Positions 26,027 through 26,836 of a stretch of DNA of 64,000 nt are shown piece after piece (position 1 is the stretch's first letter; each line of letters opens with the position of its first letter). Location: the sequence record PQ510734.1, one strand, 5' to 3'. The DNA is from Escherichia phage A6-6. The translations under genes were made by a program, and so were the position numbers. Under the pieces are notes generated by a model that saw only the letters and a list, made by a program, of their open reading frames with translations, did not search any database and had not been told where the DNA came from.

Positions 26027-26360
26027 AATTTTGGTTTTATGTATAGGATTAATTTCATTTTCTGCGTTAGCAGATACATCATATACTGAAATTAGAGAGT
26101 ATGTAAACCGTACTGCTGCGGATTATTGCGGGAAAAATAAAGCATGCCAAGCTGAATTTGCGCAGAAATTAATATATGCATATAAAGACGGAGAAAGAGA
26201 TAAATCAAGCAGATACAAAAATGATACATTGTTAAAACGATATGCTAAAAAGTGGAATACCTTAGAATGTTCAGTTGCGGAGGAGAAAGATAAAGCCGCT
26301 TGTCATTCAATGGTTGACCGTTTGGTAGATTCTTATAATCGAGGATTGAGTACTAGATGA
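26019..26360 (+). CDS. vs: Valyl-tRNA synthetase modifier Vs, putative
   Basis: 113-aa ORF with signal peptide between vs.1-like gene and the tk.x block; positional assignment. Confidence 0.5.
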   Translation: MTKILVLCIGLISFSALADTSYTEIREYVNRTAADYCGKNKACQAEFAQKLIYAYKDGERDKSSRYKNDTLLKRYAKKWNTLECSVAEEKDKAACHSMVDRLVDSYNRGLSTR

Positions 26361-26836
26361 TTGTAAAATATATCAAGGGCGATATTGTCGCCCTATTTCT
26401 TCAAGGTAATATTATTGCGCACGGGTGCAATTGCTTTCACACAATGGGCTCTGGTGTAGCAGGTCAATTAGCAAGAGCCTATCCCAAAATTTTAGAAATA
26501 GATAAAACCACTACCGAGTACGGTTCTCGTGATAAATTAGGCGATATGTCTATTGTTTTTAAACATAGTCCTACAGGATTTGGTATATGCTATAACCTGT
26601 ATACGCAATACGAACCGGGTCCTAATCTTGATTATGGTGCTTTAGTAAACTGCATGATAGAATTAAATCTACAGGCAGAAACCCTTTTGTTTAAACCAGT
26701 AATTTACATTCCACGCATAGGTTGCGGTATTGCTGGTGGTGATTGGGATAAGGTTTCTAAATTAATCGACATGTTTACTCCTGATATTGATTTAATAGTG
26801 GTAGATTATGAAAGTACATTACCCGCATCCGTTTGA
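26357..26836 (+). CDS. Macro-domain protein (ADP-ribose binding or hydrolase fold)
   Basis: 159-aa ORF; N-terminal GDIxxxxxQGNIIAHGCNC and MGSGVAGQL resemble macro-domain ADP-ribose-binding motifs. Confidence 0.55.
   Translation: MIVKYIKGDIVALFLQGNIIAHGCNCFHTMGSGVAGQLARAYPKILEIDKTTTEYGSRDKLGDMSIVFKHSPTGFGICYNLYTQYEPGPNLDYGALVNCMIELNLQAETLLFKPVIYIPRIGCGIAGGDWDKVSKLIDMFTPDIDLIVVDYESTLPASV

Follow-up and report, generated by a model that had tools for sequence, protein, structure and literature searches.

Escherichia phage A6-6 encodes a macrodomain protein in the slot that tk.4 occupies in phage T4, and this protein is the orthologue of T4 Tk.4, now named AdfM, and probably works as a stand-alone ADP-ribosyl glycohydrolase that erases the thymine-linked mark of DarT2 from single-stranded phage DNA. 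Its gene is an ATG-started open reading frame at positions 26357–26836 on the + strand (159 amino acids, stop codon included in the coordinates) of the window, the 64,000-nucleotide stretch of record PQ510734.1 that we analyzed. The macro fold, the ADP-ribose-binding motifs, the orthology to Tk.4, and a glutamine in place of the catalytic lysine are all evident in the A6-6 protein. An initial annotation of the same reading frame had proposed a macrodomain that could reverse defensive ADP-ribosylation, and this anti-defense function was correctly foreseen from sequence alone. The anti-DarT2 idea is correct but has already been published for the T4 orthologue, and the A1pp/macro label already stands in the T4 RefSeq entry. 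What remains of interest is the lysine-free active site, along with the mosaicism of the tk.4 alleles.

Genomic position and macrodomain fold

The DNA of phage A6-6 is 98 to 99% identical to that of numerous T4-like Escherichia and Shigella phages (genus Tequatrovirus), and by sequence we place the phage in this genus. Compared with T4, the gene order in A6-6 runs vs.6, vs.5, vs.4, vs.3, regB, vs.1, vs, tk.4, and tk.3, and continues through a variable stretch to tk, rI.1, rI, and rI.-1. The upstream neighbor of the 159-residue reading frame is vs, encoding the valyl-tRNA synthetase modifier (26019–26360, + strand), which is assigned from 97% identity to T4 Vs and from the annotation in related phages; the downstream neighbor is tk.3 (26808–27020, + strand), whose product matches Pfam DUF7202 and is 91% identical to T4 Tk.3. 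Because it lies between vs and tk.3, the reading frame is orthologous by position to T4 tk.4. The thymidine kinase gene tk follows on the same strand ≈750 nucleotides downstream (27588–28169, +), in agreement with the earlier description of a block upstream of tk, and the N-terminal residues, MIVKYIKGDIVALFLQGNIIAHGCNCFHTMGSGVAGQLA, match exactly the motifs quoted in that description.

The vs stop codon and the tk.4 start codon overlap as ATGA. At the other end, tk.4 overlaps tk.3 by 29 nucleotides (26808–26836), as opposed to four in T4, because the divergent A6-6 allele is four codons longer than T4 tk.4. From regB to rI.-1, every gene is co-oriented and most abut or overlap. A promoter scan of the region found 15 sigma-70-like sites where 22.9 were expected from shuffled sequences, and given this lack of enrichment we claim no promoter. 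The best upstream sigma-70-like match on the + strand lies before regB (24956–24984), and the sole convincing terminator-like site downstream on that strand lies at 29118–29135. We infer that tk.4 is cotranscribed and translationally coupled with vs. Further upstream, at 24194–24415, T4 Vs.5 (58 amino acids) matches A6-6 in two frames (24194–24244 and 24243–24368), whereas A6-6 has one continuous 73-residue reading frame, a frameshift difference with respect to the T4 Vs.5 annotation.

Several lines of evidence establish that the A6-6 protein is a macrodomain. It matches the Pfam Macro profile PF01661 with 32 bits (E = 1.3e-7; gathering score 22), covering profile positions 2 to 117 of 118, and it matches PHROG 335 with E = 1e-71. 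Sequence searches of the Protein Data Bank (PDB) returned BT1257, yeast Poa1p, SCO6735, the Mycobacterium tuberculosis DarG macrodomain, and TARG1, and a profile built from a 48-sequence family alignment scored 74 bits against BT1257, 65 against TARG1, 60 against SCO6735, 56 against Poa1p, and 48 against M. tuberculosis DarG. Matches of this kind lie well outside what chance would give; in addition, tblastn located tk.4 homologues in 2789 of 50,697 phage records from many phage groups, and 794 protein clusters match A6-6 Tk.4 at E ≤ 1e-3.

An AlphaFold2 model built on the family alignment is confident (pLDDT 93.5, pTM 0.88), with disorder limited to residues 155 to 159, and adopts the three-layer α/β/α macro fold. 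The best Foldseek matches of this model, at TM scores of ≈0.7 to 0.8, are TARG1, BT1257, Poa1p, Thermus aquaticus DarG, SCO6735, and M. tuberculosis DarG; the Foldseek probability is 1.00 for TARG1, Poa1p, DarG, and SCO6735. Alignment with reference macrodomains locates the ADP-ribose-binding motifs: a GD motif, an H-x-x-N strand, and two loops, MGSGVA and PRIGCGIAGGDW. The macrodomain proposed in the initial annotation is thus borne out by the Pfam profile, by sequence matches to solved structures, and by the predicted model, whose fold matches include TARG1, DarG, and SCO6735; a different fold or missing ADP-ribose-binding residues would have spoken against the proposal, and both the fold and the motifs are present.

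Active-site residues and relatives of the A6-6 protein

To compare active sites, we aligned nine sequences: the A6-6 protein, T4 Tk.4, a bacterial homologue, SCO6735, BT1257, TARG1, two DarG macrodomains, and PhiKZ gp104. HMMER alignments supplied the references, and the gp104 sequence came from the construct in PMC13309987. Across the 48 homologues of the family alignment, down to 38% identity, His22, Gly23, Asn25, Cys26, Gly33, Ala35, Asn80, Tyr82, Gln84, Pro119, Gly122, Gly124, and Trp130 are invariant. These residues fall into four segments of the gene, all on the + strand. The active-site strand H22-G-C-N25-C26 is encoded at 26420–26434, its His22 and Asn25 corresponding to His24 and Asn27 of SCO6735. 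The first phosphate-binding loop (GxG), M30-G-S-G33-V-A35, is encoded at 26444–26461 and is supported by the family and reference alignments; Gly31 and Gly33 are invariant in every reference macrodomain aligned. The segment N80-L-Y82-T-Q84 (26594–26608) places a glutamine at the catalytic lysine position, as seen in the profile alignment to TARG1, in the alignment of SCO6735 with the family-alignment homologue P0094, and in the nine-sequence alignment. The second phosphate-binding loop, P119-R-I-G122-C-G124-I-A-G-G-D-W130, is encoded at 26711–26746 and recovered in the alignments, with Gly122 and Gly124 corresponding to Gly126 and Gly128 of SCO6735.

The column of the catalytic lysine (Lys84 in TARG1 and Lys80 in DarG, within FPTK or LITK) is occupied by lysine in TARG1, both DarG macrodomains, and PhiKZ gp104, whereas it holds glutamine in the A6-6 protein (Gln84, within LYTQ), T4 Tk.4, SCO6735 (Gln85), and BT1257. 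The TARG1 catalytic dyad Lys84/Asp125 aligns with Gln84/Ala126 of the A6-6 protein. The mapping of Gln84 to SCO6735 Gln85 was obtained through P0094; a PDB search with the C-terminal 100 residues alone aligned the PRIGCG loop and did not align the region around Gln84. With Gln84, Asn25, Gly124, and His22 matching Gln85, Asn27, Gly128, and His24 of SCO6735, the active site of the A6-6 protein is of the SCO6735 type and not of the DarG type.

SCO6735 (PDB code 5e3b) and Bacteroides BT1257 (2afc/2fg1) are, like the A6-6 protein, stand-alone members of the TARG1/ALC1 class with glutamine at the catalytic lysine position, and all share the conserved histidine and asparagine and the motif PRIGCGxAGGxW. 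They are bacterial rather than phage proteins, at ≈27 to 28% identity to the A6-6 protein. SCO6735 hydrolyzes thymidine-linked ADP-ribose on DNA, an activity that is lost with the Q85A and Q85E substitutions, almost lost with N27S, and lowered with G128E; the proposed mechanism is water-mediated, with Gln85, held by Asn27, positioning the distal ribose, and the protein protects Streptomyces coelicolor from DarT toxicity (PMC9411070). SCO6735 is DNA damage inducible, and it has Lys34, Lys89, and a longer mobile loop. The DNA-positioning residues Lys34 and Lys89 are not kept in the A6-6 protein, where Ser32 takes the position of Lys34 and the loop following Gln84 is ≈5 residues shorter than the SCO6735 mobile loop, with no aligned lysine.

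Human TARG1, or OARD1 (4j5r), is the best Foldseek match to the A6-6 model (E = 7e-10); it removes thymine-linked ADP-ribose but uses the lysine and aspartate that the A6-6 protein has replaced. The match to yeast Poa1p (E = 1.6e-9) is confined to the N-terminal half, where His22 and Thr29 of the A6-6 protein align with the Poa1p histidine and serine mutated in structures 6lfs (H23A) and 6lft (S30A).

DarG membership was also considered and rejected. The A6-6 protein scores 27.7 bits against the NCBIfam DarG equivalog NF048014, far below the cutoff of 250, and 27.5 bits against the PADLOC DarG model, over the macro part only, where PhiKZ gp104 reaches 133 bits. The DarG macrodomains of M. tuberculosis (5m3i) and T. 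aquaticus (5m31) share the A6-6 fold with TM scores of ≈0.71 to 0.77, and DarG and PhiKZ gp104 share with the A6-6 protein a conserved asparagine and a predicted common substrate, DarT2-modified thymine in single-stranded DNA. Both carry the FPTK catalytic lysine, however, where the A6-6 protein has LYTQ, and DarG in addition has a C-terminal DarT-binding domain and adjoins darT. Neither that domain nor an adjacent darT accompanies the A6-6 gene, which encodes a single 159-residue domain and has vs and tk.3 as its neighbors. By sequence comparison, we therefore place the A6-6 protein in the TARG1/ALC1 class, as an SCO6735-like member without the catalytic lysine, and do not count it as a DarG, although it would act in the manner of the DarG macrodomain.

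A bacterial homologue from Pelagimonas phthalicica (GCA_004364805.1, 5001–5459) is 40% identical to the A6-6 protein, of the glutamine type, and stand-alone. No DarT neighbor is present at this one locus, where the surrounding genes look like ordinary metabolic and cell-envelope genes. The arrangement fits an orphan macrodomain like SCO6735 better than an origin in a DarTG operon, although a single locus says little.

Proposed removal of the DarT2 mark and competing explanations

The A6-6 protein is 58% identical to T4 Tk.4 (NP_049723.1) over 155 amino acids (E = 1e-70). The two share the slot between vs and tk.3, the length class, the fold, and the invariant histidine, asparagine, glutamine, and glycine residues; their first 14 residues are identical, and the A6-6 protein is four residues longer at the C terminus. 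T4 RefSeq labels the gene product “phosphatase; Tk.4; contains A1pp phosphatase motif,” and related records carry the labels “phosphatase,” “macro domain protein,” “RNase III inhibitor,” and “O-acetyl-ADP-ribose deacetylase.”

Earlier work had found that T4 lacking adfA and adfN was still resistant to DarTG2, and another factor was therefore predicted. In a preprint of November 2025 describing HIDEN-SEQ, a T4 transposon library was screened on DarTG2-expressing E. coli, and tk.4 was the single significant match; a clean tk.4 knockout makes T4 sensitive to DarTG2, on K-12 the phage can do without tk.4, and the gene now bears the name adfM, for anti-DarT factor Macrodomain (bioRxiv 10.1101/2025.11.20.689424). 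In the authors' reading, Tk.4 strips ADP-ribose from DNA enzymatically; they compare it with DarG only (10.1101/2025.11.20.689424). Published T4 genetics thereby lends support to the initial annotation's suggestion that the macrodomain reverses DarT modification of DNA. The name AdfM was independently given to a different phage macrodomain, PhiKZ gp104, which clears DarT2 marks off DNA in vitro and whose N23A substitution reduces activity (Cell Reports 2026, PMC13309987). We found no biochemical hydrolase assay of any Tk.4-type protein in the literature, and the CmdTAC paper draws no link to a phage macrodomain, the term being confined to its reference list. T-even phages would have enzymes to erase the marks of both DarT chemistries, with AdfN/NADAR acting on guanine and AdfM/macrodomain on thymine.

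By analogy with T4 tk.4, the 58%-identical A6-6 allele would act in the same way, and its protection would be enzymatic. The macrodomain made during infection would serve as an “orphan antitoxin,” binding the ADP-ribose that host DarT2 places on thymine of single-stranded phage DNA. In a water-mediated cleavage, Gln84, held by Asn25, would position the distal ribose, replacing the nucleophilic or catalytic lysine of DarG and TARG1, and hydrolysis of the N-glycosidic link would release ADP-ribose and allow replication to proceed. Weighing against this reading are the genetic nature of the T4 evidence and its preprint status, the divergence of the allele, the lack of conservation of Lys34 and Lys89, and the weak match to DarG.

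We consider it unlikely that protection is mainly nonenzymatic, with the macrodomain binding DarT2 or shielding ADP-ribosylated DNA and hydrolysis being inessential. The catalytically dead variants SCO6735 Q85A, DarG K80A, and TARG1 K84A do inhibit DarT in vitro, SCO6735 most strongly (PMC9411070), and a role in contacting the toxin could account for the strong divergence of the tk.4 alleles, but the residues required for SCO6735 catalysis are all invariant in the family, and the single A6-6 domain comes without the DarT-binding C-terminal domain of DarG. More unlikely still is that the main substrates lie elsewhere, in uracil- or phosphate-linked ADP-ribose on RNA or in the products of other host ADP-ribosyltransferase defenses, with the anti-DarT2 effect as one facet. 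RNA carrying uracil-linked ADP-ribose is a further substrate of SCO6735, TARG1, and DarG, and published accounts, which conflict for SCO6735, report action of SCO6735 and TARG1 on some phosphate-linked nucleic acids; the T4 phenotype, however, is reported on DarTG2 only (10.1101/2025.11.20.689424), and no RNA ADP-ribosylating defense is known to be countered by Tk.4.

The database labels would make the protein a metabolic ADP-ribose-1''-phosphate phosphatase or O-acetyl-ADP-ribose deacetylase, and the Poa1p similarity, in both the N-terminal match and the profile score, together with the alignment of His22 with Poa1p His23, points the same way. We regard this as very improbable: the labels are carried over from the domain name and not from tests, and a metabolic role leaves the DarTG2-specific phenotype of T4 unexplained. 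To our knowledge, T4 tRNA repair by Pnk and Rnl1 does not generate Appr>p, which we also count against it. The least likely explanation, with next to no probability in our estimate, is that the protein reverses or tunes the phage's own Alt, ModA, and ModB modifications of host proteins. The initial annotation had raised this as well, and it found no support beyond co-occurrence in one genome. Alt and the Mod enzymes are arginine specific, and arginine-linked ADP-ribose is normally reversed by ARH/DraG-type enzymes and not by TARG1-class macrodomains. We rank this explanation last because the arginine linkage is not known to be reversed by the class to which the A6-6 macrodomain belongs, whose closest relatives act on aspartate and glutamate esters and on thymine- and uracil-linked ADP-ribose; the dispensability of tk.4 on K-12 also speaks against it.

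Elsewhere in the window, a Nudix hydrolase reading frame (20936–21391; Pfam NUDIX, 50 bits) adjoins the lysozyme gene e (21428–21922), and we take it to be the likely orthologue of T4 e.1/NudE. NudE hydrolyzes ADP-ribose, the compound that hydrolysis by a macrodomain would set free, but any functional link between the two is speculative.

The divergent tk.4 cassette and its flanks

The tk.4 gene stands out from its surroundings in its divergence from T4. At the protein level, identity to T4 is 97% for vs, 99% for vs.1, regB, and tk, and 91% for tk.3 (91 to 100% over the flanks overall), as opposed to 58% for tk.4. Sliding nucleotide identity delimits a divergent cassette with abrupt edges at 26395–26841 on the + strand, within which identity to T4 is 45 to 80%, compared with 93 to 100% for the backbone. 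Up to position 26394, A6-6 is ≈100% identical to T4; beyond the cassette, identity is 85 to 97% in tk.3 (26842–27021), and it returns to 95 to 100% within tk from ≈27621.

At the left edge of the cassette lies a hairpin, the palindrome AGGGCGATATTGTCGCCCT at 26376–26394 on the + strand, which spans tk.4 codons 7 to 13 and is a terminator-like match followed by a T-rich tract. Its predicted folding energy is −12.9 kcal/mol (z = −3.2). The hairpin is identical in T4, its stem is kept in Dhakavirus VR5, and it is missing from Jiaodavirus JY1. Because identity to T4 collapses directly 3′ of it, the hairpin may mark a junction of recombination or function as an RNA element.

At least three classes of allele adjoin vs in T-even phages: the A6-6 type, a VR5 type (≈73% identity), and the T4/T2 type (≈58% identity). 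A fourth homologue (≈53% identity) lies in the vs–tk region of Jiaodavirus JY1, one gene from vs. In the phage collection, alleles of the A6-6 type (≥90% identity) occur in ≈312 records and the class with 60 to 80% identity in ≈100 records. Synonymous sites are saturated between tk.4 alleles at 58% amino acid identity. By these comparisons, T-even lineages seem to have exchanged tk.4 as a cassette.

A stronger version, in which the tk.4 slot is a swappable cassette recombined at fixed junctions, with the conserved hairpin as the left one, and the alleles could differ functionally, strikes us as doubtful. If it were true, the alleles might neutralize different DarT2 variants through contact with the toxin, act on different linkages (thymine in DNA versus uracil in RNA), or evade host systems that sense the macrodomain. 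Any such allele specificity would bear on host-range prediction for therapeutic T4-like phages on strains carrying DarTG2.

Between tk.3 and tk, at 27022–27560, A6-6 has another hypervariable cassette, which is essentially unalignable with T4. Three small reading frames occur here: a Cys-rich one matching Pfam Phage_zn_bind (27017–27223), one with no family (27220–27396), and one matching DUF7438 with 52% identity to T4 Tk.2 (27393–27578). In T4, the same interval contains tk.2 and tk.1 only.
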